From positions 32,001-96,000 of IMG/VR virus record IMGVR_UViG_3300044266_000210: a stretch of 64,000 bases of DNA; one strand, written 5' to 3'. Shown here piece by piece: positions 2,039 through 55,764 of the stretch. Made by a program: the position numbers and the translations under genes. Position 1 is the stretch's first letter, and the number at the start of each line of letters is the position of its first letter. The notes under the pieces were generated by a model. It worked only from the letters and a program-made list of their open reading frames with translations, searched no databases and was not told the DNA's origin. The DNA comes from a virus. Taxonomy: Duplodnaviria; Caudoviricetes.

Positions 2039-2317
2039 TTATTTTTTATGTACATAAGGGCAACCCAATGTAAGCATAGTAATTTCTCTAGGATCTTCTA
2101 CGCCAATTTCTATCATTTCCACAGTTTTATTATTACTGTCTAAAGATAAAGTCTTGCGGATTGCATACCTACTATTTAAGTGGTAGTTAATCCATTGGTC
2201 TAAATTCTTGAGATCACAAATACCAATTTTAATTTTGGTAAAATGATTGGGGATAAAGCTCAGACGCCTTACCCCCAAGACACTCAACGGGTTTACTTCG
2301 TTTCTACTTAGACTCAT
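2039..2317 (-). CDS. Hypothetical protein
   Basis: 92 aa, ATGA overlap with the upstream gene. Confidence 0.7.
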   Translation of the reverse strand: MSLSRNEVNPLSVLGVRRLSFIPNHFTKIKIGICDLKNLDQWINYHLNSRYAIRKTLSLDSNNKTVEMIEIGVEDPREITMLTLGCPYVHKK

Positions 2318-3576
2318 TTTCCTAGTTCGTAGTGTGCGGTCTGTCCAAAGGGTGCAATAATTTCTTTGTTGCCATGTATAATAAACAGCGTATCGCAGTA
2401 GTCCTCATCACCCCAGCTACCACAAGGGTATCCATCTGTGAACATAATGAATTTTTTGGGTTGAATGTCGTTATCTTTCATGAATTGGAAGTTAACATCA
2501 AAGTCAGTACCACCACCCCCTTGGCAACGATAATCATTAATATCTTCTGCGGTATCACCTGTGAATTGTTGATAGCCATAGACATCTGTATCGAAAGTCC
2601 ACAGATCAAGTTTAAAGTCTTTATACTCTTCCATAATGCCTTTAACTTCGCTTAAGAAGTCTTTAGCCATTGCATCACTAATAGATCCGCTCATGTCAAT
2701 ACAGACACTGACATCAATGGTTTCTTCATTCATCATACCAGGTAAAACAGCACCGCAGTGTTGGCTCTTACGATTGGGACGAGTAAAACTGAAGTTGCTC
2801 TTAAAGATACTTTGGATGTTCATACGCAACATTTGTCGCCAGTCCATCTTAGGCTCAGTAAACGCTTGAATCATTCTTGCAACACCTGCAGGAACTTTAC
2901 CAGCACCTGCGGATTGTGCGGCCGCAACCATTGCTTCTTTGATCTCGTCACGGATCTGTTTCTTTTCCTCAGCAGTTAGCTTAGGGCGCTTGCTCTTGCC
3001 ATCACCGTCTTGTTCATCACCGTCGCCGTCACCTTCGCCATCACCGTCAAGGTGTTCATCCAACAGCTCGCCTAGCTGACTAATGTCAATCTTAACGGCA
3101 TTCTTTTCAATGTCTTCGTAAATTTGTTCGTAGCTCCAACCGCGATATTTGTTGTCTTGGAAAATTTTAATAAAATGCGGCACTTCACCGATACGCTCGT
3201 CTTTAAGGATTTGATTAGCGGCATAGTCAGCGGCAATGTTTGACAACTGTGGATCTCGGCTTTCACGGCGTCCCATGTGATCAAATACATTATGTAAAAC
3301 TTCGTGTGCAAATCCAAATTCGCATTCTTTTGGATTAAGTGCGTGAACAAAATCGTTGTTATAATAGAAGTGGCGACCATCTGTGGCCAATGTACCAATC
3401 CAGTCTGTAGCGTCGACTAGTTTAAGACGAGTAGCCAAATTACCAAAAAAAGGATGTCGCAGTAGAAGGCCAATACGGGCAGTGATTAGTTTCTCAACAA
3501 TCTTATTTTTTTGATCTTGAGTAAATTCTTGTTTGGTTATTTGTTTTTGTTTAGTTGCTGTAGTTGTCTTGCTCAC
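2314..3576 (-). CDS. Metallopeptidase-like (HExxH) plus VWA domain protein, DUF2201-like partner of the MoxR-type ATPase
   Basis: AHEVLH motif, acidic linker, DMSGS MIDAS, GGGGTDF, FTDGY. GTG start at 3576 behind AGGAG. Confidence 0.85.
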   Translation of the reverse strand: MSKTTTATKQKQITKQEFTQDQKNKIVEKLITARIGLLLRHPFFGNLATRLKLVDATDWIGTLATDGRHFYYNNDFVHALNPKECEFGFAHEVLHNVFDHMGRRESRDPQLSNIAADYAANQILKDERIGEVPHFIKIFQDNKYRGWSYEQIYEDIEKNAVKIDISQLGELLDEHLDGDGEGDGDGDEQDGDGKSKRPKLTAEEKKQIRDEIKEAMVAAAQSAGAGKVPAGVARMIQAFTEPKMDWRQMLRMNIQSIFKSNFSFTRPNRKSQHCGAVLPGMMNEETIDVSVCIDMSGSISDAMAKDFLSEVKGIMEEYKDFKLDLWTFDTDVYGYQQFTGDTAEDINDYRCQGGGGTDFDVNFQFMKDNDIQPKKFIMFTDGYPCGSWGDEDYCDTLFIIHGNKEIIAPFGQTAHYELGK

Positions 3577-3605
3577 AATAAACTCCTGTTTTGTGTATAT
3601 ATACA

Positions 3606-3634
3606 ATTATACACTCAAAATGTAAAAAATGCAA
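3606..3634 (-). promoter_or_regulatory. Sigma70-type (early) promoter
   Basis: TTGCAT-N17-TATAAT on the minus strand. Confidence 0.75.
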
Positions 3635-20891: not shown

Positions 20892-21386
20892 TTATTTTTT
20901 GTTCAGAAATGTTGCGGCAAATCTTTTACAGATGTCTTTAAGTTTACCAGTTTGTGTTTCTTCTAGGCTAAACTTTACCTTCTCGTTGTCCTGTGTTGGA
21001 TCTATATACCCACAATAGACTTTGCGACATTTTGAATTGTTTACCAAATCGGTACAACTTTCTCCATAGCGTTCGTCCATATCCTCGTTGCAAGGACTTA
21101 GTGTGGTAATAATAATACTACCCTGTGGTATTGGACCGTAGTGTTCTTCATAACGATCCATAGCAACTCTTTCTGCGTGGCGTCTAGTTCCGTCCCCGGC
21201 CGCCTCGTTTACACCGAAGACTTTGCGGTTTTTGGGGTCTAAGACACAGGCCGCAACCATTCCGTATTTTTCTGAATCAATATTCTGACCCTTTATTACA
21301 TGGTAGCAGAGTTCAGCCAGAATCTTGTCCAGCTTAGGACGATTGTGAATTTCATAATCACTTTCATCAAACTCTCTTAGTCTCAT
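20892..21386 (-). CDS. Zn-dependent cytidine-deaminase-fold protein (RibD-like spacing)
   Basis: HAE, TTLSPC-x11-C, VYCGYIDP. Confidence 0.8.
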   Translation of the reverse strand: MRLREFDESDYEIHNRPKLDKILAELCYHVIKGQNIDSEKYGMVAACVLDPKNRKVFGVNEAAGDGTRRHAERVAMDRYEEHYGPIPQGSIIITTLSPCNEDMDERYGESCTDLVNNSKCRKVYCGYIDPTQDNEKVKFSLEETQTGKLKDICKRFAATFLNKK

Positions 21387-23341
21387 TTTTTCTTGCTTGG
21401 TTCGTTGGCAGCATAATGTGCCGCTACAGCCATTTGTGCTTTCTTTTGTGGTGTTTTATTTTTAAACTGATGGTATTTGTTTGGATCGGCTTTTTGAAAA
21501 TCCTGTACCCATACATCTACATCAGCTTGTGGATTTAATTTTTCTGATACTTGTTGTGCCACACTTAGTACATAAGCATCTTCGTGGCAGTTCCATTTAC
21601 GCAGAGCCAATGCCTTGCGTGTAGGTTTGCCGTTAGGCTTCTTCATTGGACCCTTTACACCTGACATACGAGCACAGAAAGATTTGCGGCGTTTAGCGGC
21701 CTTACTACCTTTCTTTAACTTGCTAGGCTTGGTAGTAACTGCTGTTTGTAGTTTGCTACCAGGATGACTACGACGATAACTAGCTACACCCTTCTTATTC
21801 AACCCGCCTGATTTGCTCTTGCCTTTACTTGTTTGCCATGCTTCGGCTTCTGCTAGTAATTCTTGATCGTCGATATTTTCAACATCTTCCCAGACTTGAT
21901 CAACATCTACACCGTTCTGAGCGGCAATGTCTTCAATCATAGATTCGATAATATCAAATTTCTGATTAAGTTCGGCATCTTCGCTTAGACCTTTTTTCTT
22001 CTTAGCGATAGCAATAGCGGCCTGTTGTGCAGGATTAGCTGCCTCGGTAGCTTCAATGTCTTCTTTAGGCACACAGTTATTAACTCTAACACCGCCCTTC
22101 ATTTTAGTACCCTGCTTTTTATAGCCTTTCCAGCAACTAGGATCTAGTCGTTGTTTTTCTTCGTTAAGTACTGTTTCTAAATGGCTCATGAATTCATCTT
22201 CCATGACTCCGCGGCCGTGATGTGTTCCTGAGTATGTATCGTAGGATCCTTTACCCCAACCACCTACTGTACTATGATCTTCGCTGACCTGTTTGATTGC
22301 TTGGATAGCTGGTTTAACTTGATCTTGTTTTAATTTAACAGGAAATTCTTTTCCTGCATAATTAAAACTATCTTCGCCTCTACTGGCCGCTACAGCGTGA
22401 GCCTTAGCAAATTGTTCTGCCTTATCTTGACCGCCAAGTTTTCTAGCGGCTAAATCCCATAGCTTGTCTACTGCCCACATACCACCTTTAGCACTATTAT
22501 AAGCACCGTAGGCTGCAAGAGCAGTTCCGATAACAGGACCCAACAGCCCGACAATAGCAGGAGCACCGGCAGCACCAAGTGCGCCTAATGCCAGACCGCC
22601 TGCTGCTTTTGCTAGGAAAGGTGCATCTTCGTCGACTTCTTCTGCACGAGCAATTGTTTGCTTTAGACTATGAATACGACTTTGAATATCTTTTTGTTGA
22701 CGCCAGAAGCTATGATCATCACTGTATTCAAAGTTAGGATCAAACTGTCCCTGTAATTTTTCTAATTCAGCCTTCATCTGTGGAAGGTTTGCTTTATCAC
22801 GAGCTAGACTATCTGCACGGTTTTTTTCGTCCGATGCTGCCCTTATTTTATCATATCGTGCCTGTGCGCGACCGATCCCTGCATCTCTTCTACGAGCAAT
22901 ATCTAGTTCTTTTTCTCGACTTGCTGGATCATTGCCAAACGCCGCGCCCATTTTTGCCAGAGCTGATGCCATTTTAGCCTTGCGCTGATAATCCCCTAGA
23001 CTAACTTCATCTAGTTTTGCTTTTAATACTTCAATGCGTGTTGCAATATCTTCCATGTAAGGTTTCTTGTGTTTTTCCTTACCTTGTTTTTGTTCTTTTT
23101 TCTTGTCTCGATGGGCGCCTGCACCTGTCTGAGTTTTTAACGCACCTTGTCTAGGCTTTTGTTTAACTGGAACAGTAACACTATCGCCTTCTTGTGTAAT
23201 TAGCCCGCCTCGTTTAATAACATTGCCCATAGGCTTTGATATGCTAGCTACAGCACCTGCACTAGTACCGCCGCCTGTTGCACTTTCCAAAGTATAGACA
23301 GTGGCATCTTTATATTGTTTTACTTTAAATTCGTGTTTCAT
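21383..23341 (-). CDS. Modular probable internal head polyprotein (includes a DUF6321-like module)
   Basis: Short modules separated by hydrophobic-x-E sites; modules CWKGYK...NNCVP and AWQ...GGLN...RRKSFCARM...WNC. Confidence 0.65.
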   Translation of the reverse strand: MKHEFKVKQYKDATVYTLESATGGGTSAGAVASISKPMGNVIKRGGLITQEGDSVTVPVKQKPRQGALKTQTGAGAHRDKKKEQKQGKEKHKKPYMEDIATRIEVLKAKLDEVSLGDYQRKAKMASALAKMGAAFGNDPASREKELDIARRRDAGIGRAQARYDKIRAASDEKNRADSLARDKANLPQMKAELEKLQGQFDPNFEYSDDHSFWRQQKDIQSRIHSLKQTIARAEEVDEDAPFLAKAAGGLALGALGAAGAPAIVGLLGPVIGTALAAYGAYNSAKGGMWAVDKLWDLAARKLGGQDKAEQFAKAHAVAASRGEDSFNYAGKEFPVKLKQDQVKPAIQAIKQVSEDHSTVGGWGKGSYDTYSGTHHGRGVMEDEFMSHLETVLNEEKQRLDPSCWKGYKKQGTKMKGGVRVNNCVPKEDIEATEAANPAQQAAIAIAKKKKGLSEDAELNQKFDIIESMIEDIAAQNGVDVDQVWEDVENIDDQELLAEAEAWQTSKGKSKSGGLNKKGVASYRRSHPGSKLQTAVTTKPSKLKKGSKAAKRRKSFCARMSGVKGPMKKPNGKPTRKALALRKWNCHEDAYVLSVAQQVSEKLNPQADVDVWVQDFQKADPNKYHQFKNKTPQKKAQMAVAAHYAANEPSKKK

Positions 23342-23706
23342 TTTTTACTCATCCAATTACTGGTAGGGCTTACCTTGTGTGTATCTTCGGGTTCTGCACT
23401 TTTAGACCATGGAGTTACCTGTTTGCTGTCTGTAGGAACAGTTGCTTCGGCCTGGCGGAACATATTATATTCTTCTTCTGTGTAGGGATGCTGTGTGTTA
23501 TACTTTTCTACCCAACTTGCTTCATCCATATCAACTGGTTTTTTACTCTTACCGTCGGCCATAGCAGTGGCCATCCATAAACGATTCATGTGATAAGTTC
23601 TATCGTAGCCACCATCGTCACGAGAAACATAAACACCTTGCTGTACCGCGGCATGGCGCTTCTTCATTTTTCCCTTTCGCTCTACAATAAAATCTCTTGC
23701 TCTCAT
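23338..23706 (-). CDS. Hypothetical, probable internal head protein
   Basis: N-terminus MRARDFIVE resembles a capsid-targeting sequence. Confidence 0.6.
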   Translation of the reverse strand: MRARDFIVERKGKMKKRHAAVQQGVYVSRDDGGYDRTYHMNRLWMATAMADGKSKKPVDMDEASWVEKYNTQHPYTEEEYNMFRQAEATVPTDSKQVTPWSKSAEPEDTHKVSPTSNWMSKK

Positions 23707-24149
23707 TGCGGGCCGCCCTTGCTACTTGCTCGTAACATCCATCCGTGCTTTTCGTGTGCGTCCATACGCTCTGCCAGGAAGTTGCTGAATCCGTGCTTGC
23801 CTTCTGCTTCGGCAGCATCGTATGTTTTCTTTAGGATCATGATCATCCGTTCATTGTCAATTAATAATTCTCGTACCATCGCTTCTAGAGGAATGATTTC
23901 AGTTTCATCTTTAACTTGAGTAAGCATACTGAAGCGAGCTAGGCTTGCTGGAGTGTAGGTCTTTAATTTGCGAATATTTTCGGCAAAATCGTCAACAACT
24001 CCATACACTTCGTCGTAAATCTTTTCAAAAAGTGCGTGATATTCAAAGAAATCGCTTCCTTCGACGTTCCAATGAAAGTTCTGCGCCTTTAGTGCAAAAC
24101 TATAGGTGCTTGCAAATGCTATTTTGGCTAACTGTTGTAACTGATCCAT
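23703..24149 (-). CDS. dps: Dps / ferritin-like protein
   Basis: HWNVEG, HALFEKIY, DDFAENIR, EKHGWML. Confidence 0.92.
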   Translation of the reverse strand: MDQLQQLAKIAFASTYSFALKAQNFHWNVEGSDFFEYHALFEKIYDEVYGVVDDFAENIRKLKTYTPASLARFSMLTQVKDETEIIPLEAMVRELLIDNERMIMILKKTYDAAEAEGKHGFSNFLAERMDAHEKHGWMLRASSKGGPQ

Positions 24150-24155
24150 GATATG

Positions 24156-24419
24156 TTATTTATTATTTTTTCCAAACCAAAGTTTAAACCACTCTTCGGT
24201 TCCAGGACGTATTCCCTGTTCACGCTGTATTTGTCCTTTATTACTACCTACTACAGCAGGTTTTAACAGACTATTATATTGGGCCAGTGCCTCCATTGAT
24301 CCTAGTCCGCCCATCATGCTTGCAGGCATTAGGTTGTGTATAGGATCATCGGGTGCTAGATAGCAATCGTTATCCTCTTTAGGATTAAGATCTGCGCTGG
24401 TTATTTTGTATTGCTTCAT
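24156..24419 (-). CDS. Hypothetical protein
   Basis: 87 aa ending PGTEEWFKLWF. Confidence 0.65.
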   Translation of the reverse strand: MKQYKITSADLNPKEDNDCYLAPDDPIHNLMPASMMGGLGSMEALAQYNSLLKPAVVGSNKGQIQREQGIRPGTEEWFKLWFGKNNK

Positions 24420-27400
24420 TCATTATAATCTTATCAATAAGAGAGGCAAAAATACGATCTAGATCTTCGTTAACACTTTCAGCAGCCCCGCCTACTAAGT
24501 CGCCTGCTCTTGCTGGGCGATTCTTACTTGGTCCAGTATTTTTCCACTGCCCTGCTGGTCCTAATTTGTTTCTGTCACTGCCAGCAAACGTACTCTTAGG
24601 CAACATAGCTTCATTCTTCTTAGCAATGTCTCTACCTTTTAGATGTTCTTCGCGGCGTTTATCGCCAGCGGCACGTAGTTTAGCTGTAGCACCATCCTTG
24701 GGATCTGTTAAGCGTTTAGCTGTTTGTGCCATTGCTTTACTTTCACCTTCCGCCACACCTTCGTTCTTTGGCATTAGGTGATAGTTTTTTCGTGCTTCGA
24801 TATCAACTAAGTCAGCATTTAGTTGACCCATTGTTAGTCCGTGTGGTCCGCGTCTTAAATCATCCATAACATCTGGATGTGCGTTTAACCACTTACGCAT
24901 ATCAGGAGTCATCTTACCAGCACGAATAGCATCAGCATAACTTGTTAGGAACTTGATGTATTCTTGTCTGTCAATCTCATTTCCTGCGGCACCGCCGCGG
25001 GCGCCTGCAACTGCTGGATAATAAGGACTTCCAGGATGGAATGGGTTACTTGCTACTTCAGAACCGTGACCACTTACACTTCCACCCTTACCGCCACTAC
25101 TTCCACCTTTACCACCACTAGCGTGTCCACCGCCTGAGCTAGCATGTCCACCACTTCCACCGTGTCCACCACCGCCTCCGCCACCTTTGGCCATAGCGTT
25201 GACACCTGTTGCTCCTAATGTGGCAGCACCCAGACCTTTTAAGAATCCTCTACGGTCTATACCTGCTTCCGCCACACCTTGCTCCACATCAACTATCTCA
25301 CCACGAGGAAAAGAATCTACAACTTTTTCTGCTGTAGTACGGGGCATGGGTTTTGTTTTGACCCATCTACCTGACTCCATTGTGTCCTGTTGCCAGTATT
25401 TAATCTGAACCAACTCTGCCAAGCCTTCCGCCACACCTTGCTGTTGTTTCTTCTCAGCATCCTTTTTAGCCTGTGCCATTACTTCTTCACCACGGCGACG
25501 ACTAGCATCACTCTTGGCACGCTCACGATCAAAGGCACGCTGTAGTTTAACGGCAGCACTCATTCGTGCTTCGTCTACGCTACTCTTTAAGTGACGGATA
25601 ACTGCACTTGCACTCTGCGTAACAGATGCCTGTGGATTCTTACGGCATACTTGTTGTATAACATTCATTAAGTACTCGTCACCGTATCGTGAGAATAGTT
25701 CAGGTTGCATCTCGTGTAAAAACTCTGCTACCTGTGCAGATTTATCTTCTTCGTATTCTTCCCAACCGTGATATTGCTTTTCATCTGTTTCGTTGATGTG
25801 TGTGCAGTTGCAAGGAGTTTGTCCACATACTGTACACATATCTTTGCCGCTTCTAATAAGAGCATTAAACAATCTTGTTTCAGATAGCGGTGCAGGTTGT
25901 GGTTCAACCTTAGGTGCCGGTTGTTTTGTAGGTTGTTGTGTGATGCCCATACCTTTTCTCGCAATATCCATTAAGTGTTTGATCCATGCCGGATCTAATT
26001 TTTGTGCTCCGTAGTTTCCGCTGTTGTATGCCGTATTCCACATAGCAAATTGTTGTTCGGGTGTCTTGTTAGGATCCTTTAAGACATTTCTTAGCTGTGT
26101 TCCGCTTACTCCAGTACCACCTTCTTCTGCGCCACGGCCGGTCACATTTGGTTCCACCTTGACATGTTCATAGCCGGCAAACTTGTTAACTGCCTTCATT
26201 AAAGCCTTACTCATACTATCGGCCATACTAGCACGATCGGTCCCTACAGTAATGATAATGTTATCATAGCGAGGTGCCTTACCCGGTAAAGGATTGATCA
26301 GTTCGTGTTTAATTTTTTGTATAAGTGTACCACCTTCGTGTGATACGGTGCTAATATTATCTGCATACTGTGGATACAGTTTACGCCATGTTTCTACTTT
26401 GACTGCGGGAGGAATAGGATCGTCTTTGCCTTCAGCAGTACCAATAAACATATATGGATCACCACCTACCTGTTTGGCTTTTTGTACAGCATAGTTGAAT
26501 AGCTGTTGATGCCCTACATGTCCGATAGCACTACCTATAGCAACAACTGCGGTCTTATTTGAATTAGCTCTTGGTTGTTCTGCACGAGCAGCCGCACGAG
26601 CTGCATTTTTTTGTGCTATAAGATCTTTTTGTTTTTCACTAGTTACCTTAACAGGTCCTAGTCGTGTGTTGATAACAATACCTTCGTAGTCCTGTCCTAA
26701 CTTATCTTTGCCAATAATATTTGGATCTTCATCAATTGCTTTTTCTAGAGCAATCTGTACAGGCTTTAATTTAGCTTCTACCTCTCTGCGTAGCTCTAGA
26801 CTTGCACGATCACGCTTGCCTGCTGTGTCACTAACAATACGCTTTAGTTCTTCTAAGTTTTCTAACGGATTGATAATTTCTGTAACATCTAGTCCTTCTT
26901 CTTGAACCAGTCTATTACTCATAAACATCACGCTTCCGCTCTGACCTAGATTAGCTAGTTGCTGAGCAGCCTCGTCGGGTAAATCATTACCTGTGCTTGC
27001 TTCTACAATACGATATGGTACTAGTACTAGTTCTACACCTTGTGGCAGTTGATCATATTCGATTCCAACAAACTTTAGTTTGCCTTCCTCAGTTTGTGTG
27101 GCAAATGGTAAAAATAATACTTCACAGGTTACCTGTTTGTCTACTAGAAATTCTGGTCCTAACTTGCTGTCAACAACCTTGATAGCCTTCATCATTTCGC
27201 CAAATAGCTTATCAAAATTTGCGGCACGCCCTAGAATCTCAGGATCAGTTGTACCTTTTTGTTTGTGATAGTCTACAAAGCCTGCTGAATATTTTGGTTC
27301 AGTGCGGCTGGTACCCATAAAAGGTTTACCGTCGCTGTTCTTACCAAAGCGGCCACCAAATCCGTCGATCTTGACATTTAGAGGAATATTCTGTAGTTTG

Positions 27401-28704
27401 AAACGACCGCCTTCTGATCTAAGTTCGTCTACCAAATCTAAAAAGTCTGCTGGCTTCAAATCACGAAGGTGTGGCATACCTTTGCGTAACTGTGCCTGTA
27501 CTTTAGGTTCTTCTGCTTCTTCAACAGGGCGATCTAATCCCACAGGTCCTTCTGAAGTTACTCTATAGTTCTTTACATAGTCTTGACGCATCTGTTCAAG
27601 ATTTTTTGGAGGAGTTATCTTTAAAGTTTTGAGTGCGTAGTTAAGTGCGGCATTCTTTTCGGCCATATCGCGCTGTGCATCACCTTTGTATAATCCTTGC
27701 GCTCCGGGAGCAAACAGTTTATCGACTAGCGCATCTAGTACCTGTTCTTTTTCTTCTGGTGTTAATACCAAATTCATGATCTCTAGTAGACCTGTAAAGC
27801 TCCAAGTCTTAGGAAGCAACTTTTTAAGTGCGCCAGTATCTATTCTTTTACCAAAGATAGTTTGAAATATAACGCCGAGGTCTTTCTCGTAACCGGCTGC
27901 AGGCAATGCTCGCATAACAGGTAACCCGTCATTTACTACCGGGCGTCCCTTTTCATCTGTAACGGGTTCATATTTTGCTCGCAGACCTCCACCTTCTTTA
28001 CTGCTGACAGCAAAACTGATCATATTATCTGTTGTAGGAACATCTTGTTCTGCACGAGCTTTACCGCGACCTACCATTTTGCGTAGTAAAAAGTCTTGTT
28101 TGGTTAATCTAGTAAACGCACCAATCAGATATTTGTGGAATACACCTTTAATACCTTGGCTTAGATCTTCCCAACTTGAACTGTGACTGAATCCTGCCCA
28201 GTCTGTAGGTTCATCTTTATCGTTGTAATCAACAAATTCAAAGTCAATCTGTACCTTTATTGGGGGATCGGTTAGTTCCCATAGACTGCTATATTGTTCA
28301 TTACCTCTGCTGTATCCTAAAAACTTAGCATTACCTACCACTTGTCCTTTTACACCATTCAACCACTGTGCTAGGTGAGGTTCGGAGTCTTTGTTAATCT
28401 GTGTATCTATGTCACCTACCTTAGGTTTGATACGCTCAAACTCATCGTCGGGTATGTCTGTATTGAAAAAATGTAGACTACTACCGCTTAGATACTTTCT
28501 ACTTTTAAGTACTTTTGGGCTCCATAGGTCATTGCCCTGGCTAGCCTTAAATCCTGCATTTATACTGTTTAATAATTGACTAAGGATAGGTACAATATAG
28601 GCACGATTGTGTACCTTAAGTTCTATCTGTTGTGCTTGGGCGCCATCTATCTCTAAATTACCGCCTTCTAAAAGTGTTCGCTTAAAAAATTCTCTTAAGA
28701 TCAT
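24385..28704 (-). CDS. Large multidomain protein: Pol-beta-type NTase + ligase-type (KxDG) NTase + HIGH-type nucleotidyltransferase + GVAE-delimited modules
   Basis: SGSS...GDID...QIDF; KIDG...EVLF...EGIVI...VKV; HVGH...VGTDR...SGTQLR; three GVAE sites. Confidence 0.75.
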   Translation of the reverse strand: MILREFFKRTLLEGGNLEIDGAQAQQIELKVHNRAYIVPILSQLLNSINAGFKASQGNDLWSPKVLKSRKYLSGSSLHFFNTDIPDDEFERIKPKVGDIDTQINKDSEPHLAQWLNGVKGQVVGNAKFLGYSRGNEQYSSLWELTDPPIKVQIDFEFVDYNDKDEPTDWAGFSHSSSWEDLSQGIKGVFHKYLIGAFTRLTKQDFLLRKMVGRGKARAEQDVPTTDNMISFAVSSKEGGGLRAKYEPVTDEKGRPVVNDGLPVMRALPAAGYEKDLGVIFQTIFGKRIDTGALKKLLPKTWSFTGLLEIMNLVLTPEEKEQVLDALVDKLFAPGAQGLYKGDAQRDMAEKNAALNYALKTLKITPPKNLEQMRQDYVKNYRVTSEGPVGLDRPVEEAEEPKVQAQLRKGMPHLRDLKPADFLDLVDELRSEGGRFKLQNIPLNVKIDGFGGRFGKNSDGKPFMGTSRTEPKYSAGFVDYHKQKGTTDPEILGRAANFDKLFGEMMKAIKVVDSKLGPEFLVDKQVTCEVLFLPFATQTEEGKLKFVGIEYDQLPQGVELVLVPYRIVEASTGNDLPDEAAQQLANLGQSGSVMFMSNRLVQEEGLDVTEIINPLENLEELKRIVSDTAGKRDRASLELRREVEAKLKPVQIALEKAIDEDPNIIGKDKLGQDYEGIVINTRLGPVKVTSEKQKDLIAQKNAARAAARAEQPRANSNKTAVVAIGSAIGHVGHQQLFNYAVQKAKQVGGDPYMFIGTAEGKDDPIPPAVKVETWRKLYPQYADNISTVSHEGGTLIQKIKHELINPLPGKAPRYDNIIITVGTDRASMADSMSKALMKAVNKFAGYEHVKVEPNVTGRGAEEGGTGVSGTQLRNVLKDPNKTPEQQFAMWNTAYNSGNYGAQKLDPAWIKHLMDIARKGMGITQQPTKQPAPKVEPQPAPLSETRLFNALIRSGKDMCTVCGQTPCNCTHINETDEKQYHGWEEYEEDKSAQVAEFLHEMQPELFSRYGDEYLMNVIQQVCRKNPQASVTQSASAVIRHLKSSVDEARMSAAVKLQRAFDRERAKSDASRRRGEEVMAQAKKDAEKKQQQGVAEGLAELVQIKYWQQDTMESGRWVKTKPMPRTTAEKVVDSFPRGEIVDVEQGVAEAGIDRRGFLKGLGAATLGATGVNAMAKGGGGGGGHGGSGGHASSGGGHASGGKGGSSGGKGGSVSGHGSEVASNPFHPGSPYYPAVAGARGGAAGNEIDRQEYIKFLTSYADAIRAGKMTPDMRKWLNAHPDVMDDLRRGPHGLTMGQLNADLVDIEARKNYHLMPKNEGVAEGESKAMAQTAKRLTDPKDGATAKLRAAGDKRREEHLKGRDIAKKNEAMLPKSTFAGSDRNKLGPAGQWKNTGPSKNRPARAGDLVGGAAESVNEDLDRIFASLIDKIIMNEAIQNNQRRS
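24747..25439 (-). repeat. Three exact in-frame 15-bp direct repeats AAGGTGTGGCGGAAG
   Basis: Plus-strand CTTCCGCCACACCTT at 24747-24761, 25266-25280 and 25425-25439; spacings 519 and 159 nt. Confidence 0.9.
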
Positions 28705-29560: not shown

Positions 29561-30258
29561 GTTGATTCCTCTGACTGGGTATTTATCAAAGATCTTGGAA
29601 CAAATTCTTCGATCTTTGATGCCCTGTCGCCTAAAAACAGCAACAACATGCTTAGAGTAGGGCCGTCTTCAACATATATACTTGGATTGGTTACCCATCG
29701 TTTTCTATTTGTTAACCAGTTTGCTACACTTACAGGAACACGCATTTTTCCGTTGTATTTGGCCATCCAAGACCAGAGGTTATCTTTGAGAGTTTGATTA
29801 ATGTTTTCTTTAATATGTAATTTGTACTGGTATTGTTTGAAGGGTAAATGATTGCAGAGCACTTTTTTATGTCCGTTGTCTAACATATATTGATACTCTG
29901 CATCATTAGCAGGCTCGTACACCGCTTGAATCCAGTTACTCATTTTTTTACATATTTGTTTGAACAGTTTGGTATCGTTGCAGTATATACTAAAGATACT
30001 GCCCTCAGTTCTTACAAATATATCTTTATCTAAAAATACATCAATATCTTTAATAAACTCTAATAGTTTAATAGGATCAAATTCTTGTTCTCTTCTAGCA
30101 AAGAATCCTGAGGCATGTATTTGTTTAGTCAAGCATTGTGCAACGGCATACTGAATACCGTTTCGTTTTATCATATAAGATCCTTTGCAATAGCATTTGA
30201 TCTTATATGAATATTTGTGGTAGAACAGCTTATGCGTTGTCAGTTTCTGGTAGCTCAT
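29548..30258 (-). CDS. Hypothetical protein
   Basis: ORF directly downstream of clpA; start uncertain. Confidence 0.65.
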   Translation of the reverse strand: MSYQKLTTHKLFYHKYSYKIKCYCKGSYMIKRNGIQYAVAQCLTKQIHASGFFARREQEFDPIKLLEFIKDIDVFLDKDIFVRTEGSIFSIYCNDTKLFKQICKKMSNWIQAVYEPANDAEYQYMLDNGHKKVLCNHLPFKQYQYKLHIKENINQTLKDNLWSWMAKYNGKMRVPVSVANWLTNRKRWVTNPSIYVEDGPTLSMLLLFLGDRASKIEEFVPRSLINTQSEESTCPV

Positions 30259-32500
30259 CTTTGGCCTTTTCAATAGGCATTATGTCTATAACGTTGATTT
30301 TTAGCTCACTGTTTTCAACTATAATTTCAACAACCCCGCCATTTACTAACTTACCAAAAAGTATTTCTTTGCTTAAAGGTCGTTTAATATAGTCATCGAT
30401 ACAGCGTTGTAGAGGACGAGCACCCATTTTGCTATTAAATCCTTTGGTAATCAGCCACTCAACTGCTTCCGATGTAGGCTTAACATGAATATTTTTATCT
30501 TTAATTTGAGCATTAAGTTCATCAATGAACTTCTTAACAACTCGAATCATGGTCTGTTGATCTAGCTTACCAAACTTAATAACACCATCTAAACGATTTC
30601 GGAATTCGGGTGCAAAGAATCGGTTAACAGCATCTTTCGGATCGCTATCTCGCTCTAAACTACCAAAGCCTACACTATTCTTTTCAGCATCAGCGGCACC
30701 TAGGTTACTAGTCATAATAAGAATAGCATTTCTTGCATCTGCTTTCTTGCCATTACTACCTGTAACAAACCCGTTATCCATTACCTGTAGCAGAACTGTA
30801 AGAACACTAGGGTGTGCTTTTTCAACTTCGTCTAACAACAGTACACAGTTAGGTGTTTCTTGTAGGCTTGTGATTAACAATCCTGCATTGTCTTCGTAGC
30901 CTACATAACCCGGAGGAGCACCGATGAACTTGGCTACACTGTGTTGTTCTTGATATTCACTCATATCAAAGCGCACTAGTTTAATACCAAGATTTTGTGC
31001 CAACTGTTTAGCAGCCTCAGTCTTACCCACACCGGTTGGTCCTACAAATAAGAAGTTACCGATAGGACGGGTAGGTGATTTCAATCCTGCCTGTGCGATA
31101 AAGACCTTATCTAGTAGGCTTTCGATAGCTTGTTCCTGCCCAAAGACCTTAGACTTCATATTCTTTTCTAGGTTAGGTAAGTTGCTGGTCTCTTTACTGT
31201 TAATACTTTCAATAGGAATATTAGCAATACGACTAATTTCAAACAAGATTTCATCATGGTCAACAATACCGCCCTCTTCGTCTCGTAGTTTGAAACGAGC
31301 ACTAGCACAGTCAATTAGGTCAATAGCCTTATCTGGTAGTTTCTTATCGCTAAGATACTTAACGCTATATTTCACGCTGTCAATGACAGCCTGGTTAGTA
31401 ATCTTAACACCGTGATGTTTTTCGTAATACTTCTTAAGACCTTTGATAATCTTAACAGCAGTTGCCTCATCTGGCTCATCAATTACTACACGTTGGAATC
31501 GACGCATCAGAGCACGATCCTTTTCAAAGTGCTTACGGTATTCTTCCCATGTAGTACTGGCGATAACTTTAATTGTACCCTTACCTAATGTGCTTTTAAG
31601 CATATTGGCCATATCATTACTGTTATTACCTGCGGCACCAGCACCATTCATCATGTGTGCTTCGTCAATGAATAGGATACACTTACCTTTCTTTTCGAGA
31701 CCATGAATAACAGCCTTGAGTCGTTCTTCAAAGTCTCCACGGTATTTGCTGCCAGCTAGCATGGCGCTGATGTCCAGGCTATAGACAGTATGATCCTGCA
31801 CAAACTTAGGAACATTACCTTCGTAGATTTTACGAGCAAGTCCTTCTGCAATAGCAGTCTTACCTACACCTGGATCGCCTATCATAATAGCATTGGACTT
31901 AGTGCGGCGTGCTAACACCAGTTGAATTTCTTCAATTTCTTTTTCACGACCAATGACAGGATCAATTTTCTTACTCTTGGCTCTTGCACTAAGGTTTAGG
32001 CAAAATTGACTGATAAATTTTTCAAGTTGAGGATTTATTCCTTTGCCTTCATCTTCTTCGCCTTCTTGTACAACTTCTTTTTTAACAAAATTAATAAAGT
32101 TGTCCTTATCGATATTGGCCTTACGCATGAGATAGTTTGCGTGGCTTTTCTTTTCACCAAACATACTAATAAAACAATCTATTGGGCTAATAATTTGTCG
32201 GCCACTAAACAGTACTTGTGTAAAAGCACGATTCAACATACGGTCAACGCTAACCGTTTTCTTTGGCTTGCCAACTGTTTCGCTAACAATATCTTTCAGC
32301 TCGTTGCTGATAAAATTTTCAAGATCTTCTCTGAAAGTTTTAACATCTGCACCAAATGCTTCTAAAATTTTTGCAAACGATTCATGACTTACCATGCTAT
32401 ACAAAAAGTGCTCGAGTGTTACGTATTCGTGTTTGTTAACACTGGCAACTTGAACAGCATGTTCAAAAATCTTCTCTAGATCCTTATCGGGTTCCAACAT
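30230..32500 (-). CDS. clpA: ATP-dependent Clp protease ATPase subunit
   Basis: Clp N-domain, GDPGVGKT, GPTGVGKTE, DKAIDLID, VGF ClpP-docking loop; no long M-domain. Confidence 0.93.
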   Translation of the reverse strand: MLEPDKDLEKIFEHAVQVASVNKHEYVTLEHFLYSMVSHESFAKILEAFGADVKTFREDLENFISNELKDIVSETVGKPKKTVSVDRMLNRAFTQVLFSGRQIISPIDCFISMFGEKKSHANYLMRKANIDKDNFINFVKKEVVQEGEEDEGKGINPQLEKFISQFCLNLSARAKSKKIDPVIGREKEIEEIQLVLARRTKSNAIMIGDPGVGKTAIAEGLARKIYEGNVPKFVQDHTVYSLDISAMLAGSKYRGDFEERLKAVIHGLEKKGKCILFIDEAHMMNGAGAAGNNSNDMANMLKSTLGKGTIKVIASTTWEEYRKHFEKDRALMRRFQRVVIDEPDEATAVKIIKGLKKYYEKHHGVKITNQAVIDSVKYSVKYLSDKKLPDKAIDLIDCASARFKLRDEEGGIVDHDEILFEISRIANIPIESINSKETSNLPNLEKNMKSKVFGQEQAIESLLDKVFIAQAGLKSPTRPIGNFLFVGPTGVGKTEAAKQLAQNLGIKLVRFDMSEYQEQHSVAKFIGAPPGYVGYEDNAGLLITSLQETPNCVLLLDEVEKAHPSVLTVLLQVMDNGFVTGSNGKKADARNAILIMTSNLGAADAEKNSVGFGSLERDSDPKDAVNRFFAPEFRNRLDGVIKFGKLDQQTMIRVVKKFIDELNAQIKDKNIHVKPTSEAVEWLITKGFNSKMGARPLQRCIDDYIKRPLSKEILFGKLVNGGVVEIIVENSELKINVIDIMPIEKAKDELPETDNA

Positions 32501-38353: not shown

Positions 38354-38864
38354 TTTCTGGACTCTCCTGTGCTACTTCACTTGCCTCGGCTGTAGCACTA
38401 GCATCGGTACGATACTTCATAAATTCTGCCATCTTGTTATGTTCTTGATTTTCTTTACCAATATACACATCCTGCATTAGTTTTTTAGGCATAGTAATTT
38501 CTACGACCCAAACAGGATGTGCATCAATTTTACCTTTCTTAGTTCCTGGTCTAAAGTCTCCTGGACTTTTAATTTTTCTAGGAATAAGAATATGTGTCTT
38601 TTTATAAACAACCTTGCACCCGTAATCATTTAATCGTTGTCCACCTTCGGGGTCTGGCATTTCATCTGCAGACCACATAAATGCACAAGTTACACTATAT
38701 CTACTAACCTCAGGGCCGGACAATAATTCACCTTCTTCCCAATTTTTAAATACATAGATATCAAGTTCGTCGATTACTCTTTCAAAGTCTTTTAGTACTT
38801 TAAACGCATCGTTATTCTCGCTAAGAGTTTGTACATTTTTAATTACATCAATAATGTCGTGCAT
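38325..38864 (-). CDS. Hypothetical late protein
   Basis: 179 aa; exact TATAAATA about 20 nt upstream. Confidence 0.7.
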   Translation of the reverse strand: MHDIIDVIKNVQTLSENNDAFKVLKDFERVIDELDIYVFKNWEEGELLSGPEVSRYSVTCAFMWSADEMPDPEGGQRLNDYGCKVVYKKTHILIPRKIKSPGDFRPGTKKGKIDAHPVWVVEITMPKKLMQDVYIGKENQEHNKMAEFMKYRTDASATAEASEVAQESPENAESETPAA

Positions 38865-38992
38865 GAGGGCTCTCTTTATTGTTTTATTTATACCAAATGC
38901 TTGCAGACAAAAAATAGGCCATTAGAGCAATTTTTTTTGTCAAGAGTGTAAATATCTATGCAGGTCGAGTCGATATTACCAAGGAGGTAAAA

Positions 38993-55634: not shown

Positions 55635-55764
55635 TATAGAACTCCAAAAAGATTATTTGGTAGATAACTACCTAGTTAATATGGTTGTGTTGCCCTCCAC
55701 TTTTTGTACACAGGTATTTATAGCCTGTTAAATATATTCACATTTTATGTAAAGGAATCCATAT

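Follow-up and report, generated by a model that had tools for sequence, protein, structure and literature searches.

How can one phage gene carry several identical copies of a short sequence, each in frame and each separating unrelated peptides, and what might such a site do? The question is raised by a 64,000-nt stretch of DNA from a virus of the class Caudoviricetes (positions 32,001 to 96,000 of the IMG/VR virus record IMGVR_UViG_3300044266_000210), hereafter termed the window. Here a single open reading frame (ORF) of 1439 residues (24385-28704, minus strand), named P0001, hosts three copies of the 15-mer AAGGTGTGGCGGAAG, each encoding the tetrapeptide Gly-Val-Ala-Glu (GVAE), which we term the linker. 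The source record of 131.5 kb was judged ~37% complete, and thus implies a genome of roughly 350 kb. From comparison with related phages, we consider it fairly probable that the P0001 family represents capsid-cargo polyproteins of an uncultured T4-superfamily jumbo phage, in which the linker would be both a protease cut site and an in-frame crossover point for modules.

The three copies of the 15-mer are located at 24747-24761, 25266-25280 and 25425-25439, all on the minus strand, compared to 0.04 copies expected by chance, and none of 100 shuffles of the window yielded three or more. The copy-to-copy spacings are 159 and 519 nt, every copy lies in the frame of P0001, and the encoded GVAE tetrapeptides occupy residues 1090-1093, 1143-1146 and 1316-1319. 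The two upstream copies, 1 and 2, are identical over 18 nt. The modules between and after the copies (49/53 residues, 169/173 residues and the tail) have no mutual similarity in BLASTP. An earlier note, made from the letters of the window, had described these exact in-frame copies in the tail of the protein and the unrelated modules flanked by them, and had held the codons GTG and GCG to be disfavoured; all three statements were borne out. In the 131.5-kb record, with a GC content of 40%, GTG accounts for 9.2% of Val codons and GCG for 7.3% of Ala codons. At this codon usage the canonical spelling of one GVAE has a probability of 0.002 (~1 in 500), and that of three copies a probability of 9e-9. 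Moreover, the three copies in P0001 are the only GVAE in ORFs of at least 100 residues throughout the record.

The same note proposed a search of viral metagenomes, and an exact-match scan of IMG/VR revealed that at least 120 stretches of DNA carry the linker sequence, with two or more copies in 35 stretches among the matches listed. Judged by sample numbers, the linker-bearing contigs come from many metagenomes. Most sites were collected via the motif itself, and the counts given here cover the fetched loci. These loci contain the 12-nt core 202 times, and 195 of the copies are read as GVAE within ORFs of at least 100 residues. The sequence is therefore a linker with a coding role and not a DNA site standing free of genes. 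In consensus it reads (Q/E/K)-G-V-A-E with G, A, E or D as the next residue, and the modules between linkers have a median length of 83 residues (range 39-436). Cultured relatives identified via the DNA polymerase are the phages Phosso, Atu_ph07, CBB and GAP32, with 43-51% identity; the linker 12-mer does not exceed the control level in these four phages or in Xanthomonas phage BUDD. In the contigs L057, L072 and L108, ORFs terminate 0-3 codons past a canonical linker. As a site at this position would be pointless for a protease, these ends look like a DNA-level remnant or a docking point.

Because the loci were found through the motif, three checks that avoid this bias were applied to the constraint on the linker DNA. 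First, the contigs L133 and L134 were found only by protein homology to module C, the segment of P0001 between linker copies 2 and 3. Of their seven GVAE sites, five have the canonical DNA and two depart from it by one or two silent changes; the degenerate joints GVTE, GVDE and GVEE of the same genes use the common Val codon GTT. Second, with one ascertaining site per locus removed, 75 of 132 GVAE sites (57%) retain the canonical spelling, compared to 0.9% predicted by the codon usage of those loci. Third, of 121 Gly codons that follow the linker, 95 are GGC, where a share of 29.5% was expected (p = 1e-28); the last two bases of this codon lie outside the search pattern. In addition, module C of P0001 shares 55% protein identity with that of P0005, and the linkers preceding the two are base-identical, so that this identity does not derive from recent common descent of the flanks. 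Altogether, the comparisons support a constraint that acts on the linker at the DNA level, as the earlier note had supposed from the choice of codons.

A competing explanation for the identity of the copies is that it has no function, the linkers having been recently duplicated or transferred along with the modules that they border. Such hitch-hiking would fit the existence of single silent variants of the linker (13, 11 and 10 copies of the three commonest), and the degenerate joints described below show protein function with no need for canonical DNA. However, base-identical linkers are found even where the flanking protein segments have no relationship or share only 55-80% identity, the linker keeps rare codons in a genome of 40% GC, and it recurs in the at least 120 contigs mentioned above. 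We regard hitch-hiking as very unlikely.

A signal at the RNA level, in the form of a Shine-Dalgarno-like pause, an internal start or a structured element, is scarcely credible. The linker does start with AAGG, but the phage uses AGGAG/AAGGA for ribosome binding, a motif with 10-14 fold enrichment ahead of its starts, and no start codon is found at a fixed distance past the linker. Two specific candidates were ruled out: a Shine-Dalgarno-like function, because AGGTG is not enriched upstream of starts (0.7 fold), and a shared RNA structure, because the three copies fold differently, two of them no better than shuffles, and have no common fold.

Module exchange between related phages

Comparison of the fetched loci shows that the linker is a point of in-frame module exchange between related phages. 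The 184 canonical sites include 25 pairs with the left flank alone in common, 30 pairs with the right flank alone and five pairs with both, all five being identical copies. In pairs sharing one flank, residue identity falls from 0.6-1.0 to background precisely at the linker. As the repeat is shorter than assembler k-mers, these pairs are unlikely to be assembly chimeras. Module C recurs in six other architectures, and what precedes it there is a GH19 domain, a cytidylyltransferase, proteins with DUF6321 or an ortholog of the P0001 core. Its left border is x-V-x-E in every architecture, and its end residues are constant. The occurrence of the same modules in different host genes, which the earlier note had proposed to look for, is thus observed.

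The module content also varies among close relatives. Relatives add GH19 and DUF6321 modules. The contigs L125 and L126, the closest relatives with 78% identity to P0001, keep the gene order, yet residues 952-1364 of P0001 are missing. Their place is taken by ~62 other residues that end in a decayed linker, CAAGGTGTG-AAT-GAA. The two canonical linkers of L125/L126 sit in the next polyprotein gene, not in the P0001 ortholog; the window's ortholog of that gene, which encodes 652 residues (21383-23341), has approximately the first 95 residues in common with it and contains no canonical linker. Gene order is shared while the cassettes of both cargo genes differ, so that cassette content evidently turns over between close relatives.

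As to mechanism, we favour a homology-guided crossover at the linker. The 12-18 nt would be kept identical because the linker serves as a crossover point for co-infecting relatives and for paralogous genes, and the exchange would proceed by ordinary homology-guided recombination with no dedicated enzyme. Modules between intact linkers would stay mobile, whereas mutated linkers would persist as plain protease sites. This preference rests on four observations: no recombinase was found, RecA/UvsX-like genes are present (in G001 and G009, two genomes of the lineage), the 15-18 nt of the linker contain no inverted repeat, internal symmetry or hairpin, and they do not resemble a ribosome-binding site. 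The earlier note had seen no recombinase in the window, and this extends to the whole 131.5-kb record, where neither the tyrosine (PF00589) nor the serine (PF00239) recombinase profile has a match. Five linker-bearing records, one of them 81% complete, have no match to PF00589 either; control profiles matched in 12-14 of 14 genomes.

An alternative is a dedicated sequence-specific enzyme, either a homing-type nuclease or an unknown recombinase, that recognises the 15-18-nt linker and drives cassette exchange, which would make this a true in-frame integron-like system. Such an enzyme would account well for the conservation of ~18 nt, silent positions and adjoining codons included, for the very sharp breakpoints, and for the ORFs that stop just past a linker useless as a protease site. 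In addition, homing nucleases are numerous in T4-type phages, and the window has an HNH gene at 2314-3606. Nevertheless, we consider this rather unlikely: no candidate enzyme was found, the recombinase searches above were negative, the linker has neither inverted repeat nor hairpin, and no pairs of insertion and empty site were found. An extended version, in which a dedicated nuclease or recombinase moves cassettes in frame between cargo genes at the 18-nt linker, coupled to protease release and to re-routing of cargo to the periplasm by the twin-arginine (Tat) pathway, appears equally doubtful. The integron-like, site-specific mechanism put forward in the earlier note is therefore not upheld, and with no recombinase found the term serves as an analogy only. 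The loose likeness of the G-rich core to Chi-type sequences, also raised there, is unsupported.

Candidate proteolytic release and capsid targeting

The second role that we ascribe to the linker, by inference from sequence, is that of a cut site for a T4-type prohead protease. The motif fits the hydrophobic-x-Glu (h-x-E) rule of these proteases, as recognised in the earlier note, and the lineage does encode such an enzyme. Genes for Peptidase_S77 (93 bits), a gp23-type capsid protein and a scaffold protein were found on the contig that harbours the 78%-identical P0001 ortholog (G007), and G009 and G001 have the same three. The scaffold proteins contain 5-6 [LVI]-A-E sites in G007 and G009 and three in G001, with 22 [LVI]-x-E sites in each of the three. 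At the position aligned to the maturation site of T4 gp23, the capsid protein has L-A-E in G007 and G009 and L-K-E in G001. In T4, gp21 cleaves after Glu, and the residue two before this Glu co-governs processing (PMC9026906).

Further support comes from joints that have lost the canonical DNA. At positions of canonical GVAE in relatives, L-N-E, G-L-S-E, L-A-E, V-D-E or V-E-E occur in other phages and in the 652-residue protein of the window. At these degenerate joints h-x-E is retained and the DNA has drifted, which argues that the protein requires h-x-E and that the canonical DNA is something extra.

The starts of the linker-bearing ORFs resemble the capsid-targeting sequence (CTS) of T4. 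The pattern M-x(4-6)-h-x-E was found at the start of 36 of 74 complete linker-bearing ORFs, compared to 53 of 457 other ORFs (p = 2e-12), and the consensus of the start peptides is close to M-R-A-x-E-F-I-T-E. The T4 CTS reads MKTYQEFIAE (PMC8442874).

A Tat-type signal provides a further indication of cleavage at the linker. Four residues past the Glu of the linker, module C has a twin-arginine motif followed by a hydrophobic stretch and A-x-A, an arrangement kept in all seven homologues. The Pfam profile TAT_signal, with a cut-off of 22.7 bits, gives 19 bits for P0001, below this cut-off, 23.1 for the L133 homologue and 23.6 for a protein of L037. Moreover, several module families, two GH19 wall hydrolases among them, have a Tat signal 2-8 residues past a CTS or a linker. 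With 1146 residues ahead of it, a signal peptide would be meaningless unless the linker is cut, as only then does the Tat signal become N-terminal. Tat signals exposed in this way would suggest a delivery route in which phage cargo enters the cytoplasm by injection and is then exported to the periplasm.

Stand-alone versions of such proteins were also observed. L037 (3861-4493, minus strand) and L071 (6264-6890, minus strand) each encode a protein of ~210 residues composed of a CTS-like peptide, a Tat-type signal and a GH19 (lysozyme/chitinase-type) domain. The Tat assignment is based on the score of 23.6 bits in L037 and on an RRGF motif seen by eye in L071. Two roles are conceivable for these proteins: wall hydrolases that are delivered by the capsid and directed to the periplasm, or endolysins exported by Tat.

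Taking these observations together, we propose that Peptidase S77, with its h-x-E specificity, would cut the linkers and free the modules inside the prohead. The freed modules would then probably accompany the phage DNA into the host, where one of them, its Tat signal exposed, would be exported to the host periplasm.

Several points weigh against this reading. No protease or capsid gene is present in this 131.5-kb fragment, which covers ~37% of the genome, and h-x-E triplets are common by chance. P0001 starts with M-I-L-R-E-F-F and has L-L-E at residues 11-13, which is partly CTS-like and falls outside the strict pattern. The gene lies between a ClpA-like gene and replication genes, and its core is enzyme-like, corresponding in the cultured phage BUDD to four ordinary genes with no sign of virion proteins. 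As for the crossover, the earlier note had proposed to check whether the breakpoints fall at the repeat: this holds for the site pairs, in which identity steps at the linker, but not for the left edge of the variable region of P0001 against its closest orthologs, which is off the canonical copies. Among 251 sites, no clean pair of the form X-Y and X-Z-Y with canonical linkers, representing an empty site and an insertion, was found. Since the sites were found mostly via the motif, exchange may also occur elsewhere in these genes. Moreover, a match of 15-18 nt is short if homologous recombination is to be efficient.

The location of P0001 outside the head module, near the ClpA-like ATPase and replication genes, and its imperfect CTS would also be consistent with a different fate of the polyprotein: another protease may cut the linker, or processing may take place in the cytoplasm with no packaging, the modules acting in the producing cell, from which the Tat module, for example, would be exported. 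The CTS-like peptide of the stand-alone Tat proteins could simply be the n-region of a signal peptide. We consider this unlikely, as CTS-like starts are strongly enriched among linker-bearing ORFs and the scaffold and capsid proteins of the lineage carry the same [LV]-A-E motif. In addition, the surroundings of the cargo genes revealed no further protease gene, and ClpA is an unfoldase, not a site-specific protease.

Architecture of P0001 and neighbouring genes

P0001 consists of a conserved core, a variable cassette region and a conserved C-terminal end, and has orthologs of 78% identity in L125 and L126. The N-terminal 13 residues (28666-28704), ending in L-L-E, are invariant among orthologs and partially resemble the T4 capsid-targeting peptide. 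They are followed by a DUF6267-like core (residues 14-712; 26569-28665) and a cytidylyltransferase-like domain (residues 713-881; 26062-26568) that matches PHROG 3041 with an E value of 1e-12. In BUDD (L139, ON758385.1 6048-9913), the core corresponds to three consecutive hypothetical genes, and the domain to a separate adenylyl/cytidyltransferase gene. P0001 is thus the fused version of a unit that cultured T4-type phages conserve as four genes, and it combines the core, the cytidylyltransferase-like domain and at least four unrelated tail modules in a single polypeptide. Within residues ~400-712 (26569-27500, minus strand), the motifs K-I-D-G, E-G-I-V-I and V-K-V resemble by eye motifs I, IV and V of covalent nucleotidyltransferases (ligases), with no database match.

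Database searches with P0001 gave little else. Pfam and NCBIfam returned the weak TAT_signal match and no other family, and neither a peptidase family nor a head-protein family was found in Pfam, PHROGs or NCBIfam. A PDB sequence search with the core gave no match up to an E value of 1, and no near-identical DNA for the P0001 gene was found in cultured phages.

The variable cassette region (residues 952-1364; 24613-25851), which is not present in the closest orthologs, begins upstream of the first canonical linker. It includes a degenerate joint S-V-D-E with non-canonical DNA (residues 1042-1045; 25570-25581) that aligns to a canonical QGVAE of L046. Linker copy 1, in its full 18-nt form (25425-25442), encodes QGVAE followed by G, and precedes module B (residues 1094-1142; 25279-25425), which has no relatives among the fetched loci. 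Linker copy 2, also of 18 nt (25266-25283), encodes QGVAE followed by A. Module C (residues 1147-1315; 24760-25266) comprises the Tat-type signal peptide immediately after this linker (residues 1147-1172; 25189-25266), a Gly/His-rich stretch and a small helical domain. Its predicted fold is confident only for residues 93-160 of the module, a small helical bundle with a pLDDT of ~80; the structural matches, with a best Z of 4.3, are not informative, and a search of the ESM Atlas gave no usable match. A tblastn search with modules B and C against the motif-fetched loci revealed no relatives, apart from a short Tat motif in L101.

Linker copy 3, in the 15-nt form (24747-24761), encodes EGVAE followed by G, and leads to the basic module D (residues 1320-1364; 24613-24747), which is found again in P0003 and P0004 at other positions. 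The conserved C-terminal region (residues 1365-1439; 24388-24612) has a V-N-E site preceding the final 26 residues. The last residues, 1410-1439 (24388-24477, minus strand), form a conserved amphipathic tail with V-x-E before it, common to the orthologs, P0003 and one ORF of L046. T4 Alt has a C-terminal propeptide, and this tail may be one as well.

The neighbouring genes on the same strand include further putative cargo. A gene of 122 residues (23338-23706) has a canonical CTS-like start, M-R-A-R-D-F-I-V-E, and a syntenic counterpart of 123 residues in L126. The 652-residue protein introduced above (21383-23341) is a second mosaic cargo polyprotein, with a DUF6321 module at residues 507-583 and degenerate h-x-E joints in place of the canonical GVAE of its relatives; its N-terminal 95 residues match the linker-rich polyproteins of L046, L097, L016 and L126. 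Next to it, a gene of 164 residues (20892-21386) combines a CTS-like start with a cytidine/dCMP deaminase domain (Pfam, 38 bits). In the L046 and L097 polyproteins, members of the 652-residue gene family, the deaminase module is fused in frame ahead of the DUF6321 module, so that the 164-residue deaminase may be head cargo instead of a metabolic dCMP deaminase.

A ferritin/Dps-like gene (23703-24149, minus strand; Pfam, 63 bits) lies inside the cargo gene cluster, and such a gene also stands beside cargo polyproteins in L126, L133 and L134. The ClpA-like gene (30230-32500, minus strand) encodes an AAA+ unfoldase that matches TIGR02639 with 885 bits, a score under the equivalog cut-off. The gene is located four genes upstream of P0001, with identical synteny in L134. 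The octamer TATAAATA of T4 late promoters is rarer in the window than expected, with two copies found (38885-38892 and 55715-55722, minus strand) against an expectation of 6.25. One copy is situated ~21 nt upstream of an ORF starting at 38864, and neither is near the P0001 gene.

Relation to known systems

No paper was found that brings GVAE together with phages in a relevant sense, and the literature on polyproteins, prohead proteases and jumbo phages yielded no description of a fixed linker. If the proposed reading is true, a giant-phage lineage owns a standard connector for building and reshuffling an injected protein arsenal, in which one short sequence both keeps the reading frame during recombination and directs cutting by the head protease. 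It would explain the rapid diversification of head cargo in the arms race with host defences. It would also open an easily searchable, large pool of small candidate anti-defence or host-takeover modules, each unit running from linker to linker, and provide a natural design rule by which several proteins are loaded into T4-type capsids.

One close likeness is to the head cargo of T4. T4's internal proteins (IPI, IPII, IPIII) and its protein Alt, from which gp21 removes the CTS (PMC9026906, PMC8442874), resemble the P0001 class in their short N-terminal peptide ending in h-x-E. The lineage likewise has the T4-type S77 protease, the scaffold and the gp23-type capsid protein, and the putative cargo is similarly small, often basic or enzymatic, and differs from one related phage to another. 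Both ends of Alt are trimmed, which may hold for the P0001 family as well. The difference is that T4 cargo consists of separate genes whose products are cut once or twice, whereas here many modules are chained in one ORF by a single linker fixed in its DNA.

Recombination among T4-type phages also shuffles PeSL cassettes (PMC2839356, PMC4122927), which share with the linker a short, conserved, repeated motif and the shuffling of modules between phages in hyperplastic regions. However, PeSLs are intergenic units of promoter and stem-loop that move whole genes, whereas the linker is a peptide-coding, frame-preserving element of 12-18 nt within an ORF, with neither promoter nor hairpin. Integrons likewise hold an array of unrelated cassettes bounded by a recurring site, with gain, loss and reordering. 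Compared to integrons, the linker system has no integrase and no attC-type folded site, its cassettes are parts of one ORF instead of promoterless genes, and exchange appears as replacement of partners, not as demonstrated insertion and excision. Viral polyproteins, such as those of positive-strand RNA viruses, are similarly divided at a recurring short motif, but their domain order is fixed and the nucleic acid of the site is not conserved, whereas the content of the linker-bearing phage proteins is combinatorial.

Finally, the polyvalent proteins of phages and conjugative elements are likewise large and built from effector domains that are unrelated to one another. They are believed to reach the host together with the DNA and, in some cases, to be split into pieces (PMC5512222). 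In contrast to the P0001 family, they have been described with embedded peptidase domains and without a standard linker, and they were not reported to have a junction fixed in its DNA or to undergo exchange at a set joint (PMC5512222). Altogether, we class the joint of the P0001 family as a combination of known kinds: T4 head cargo with its CTS, polyvalent proteins, and motif-mediated modular shuffling.

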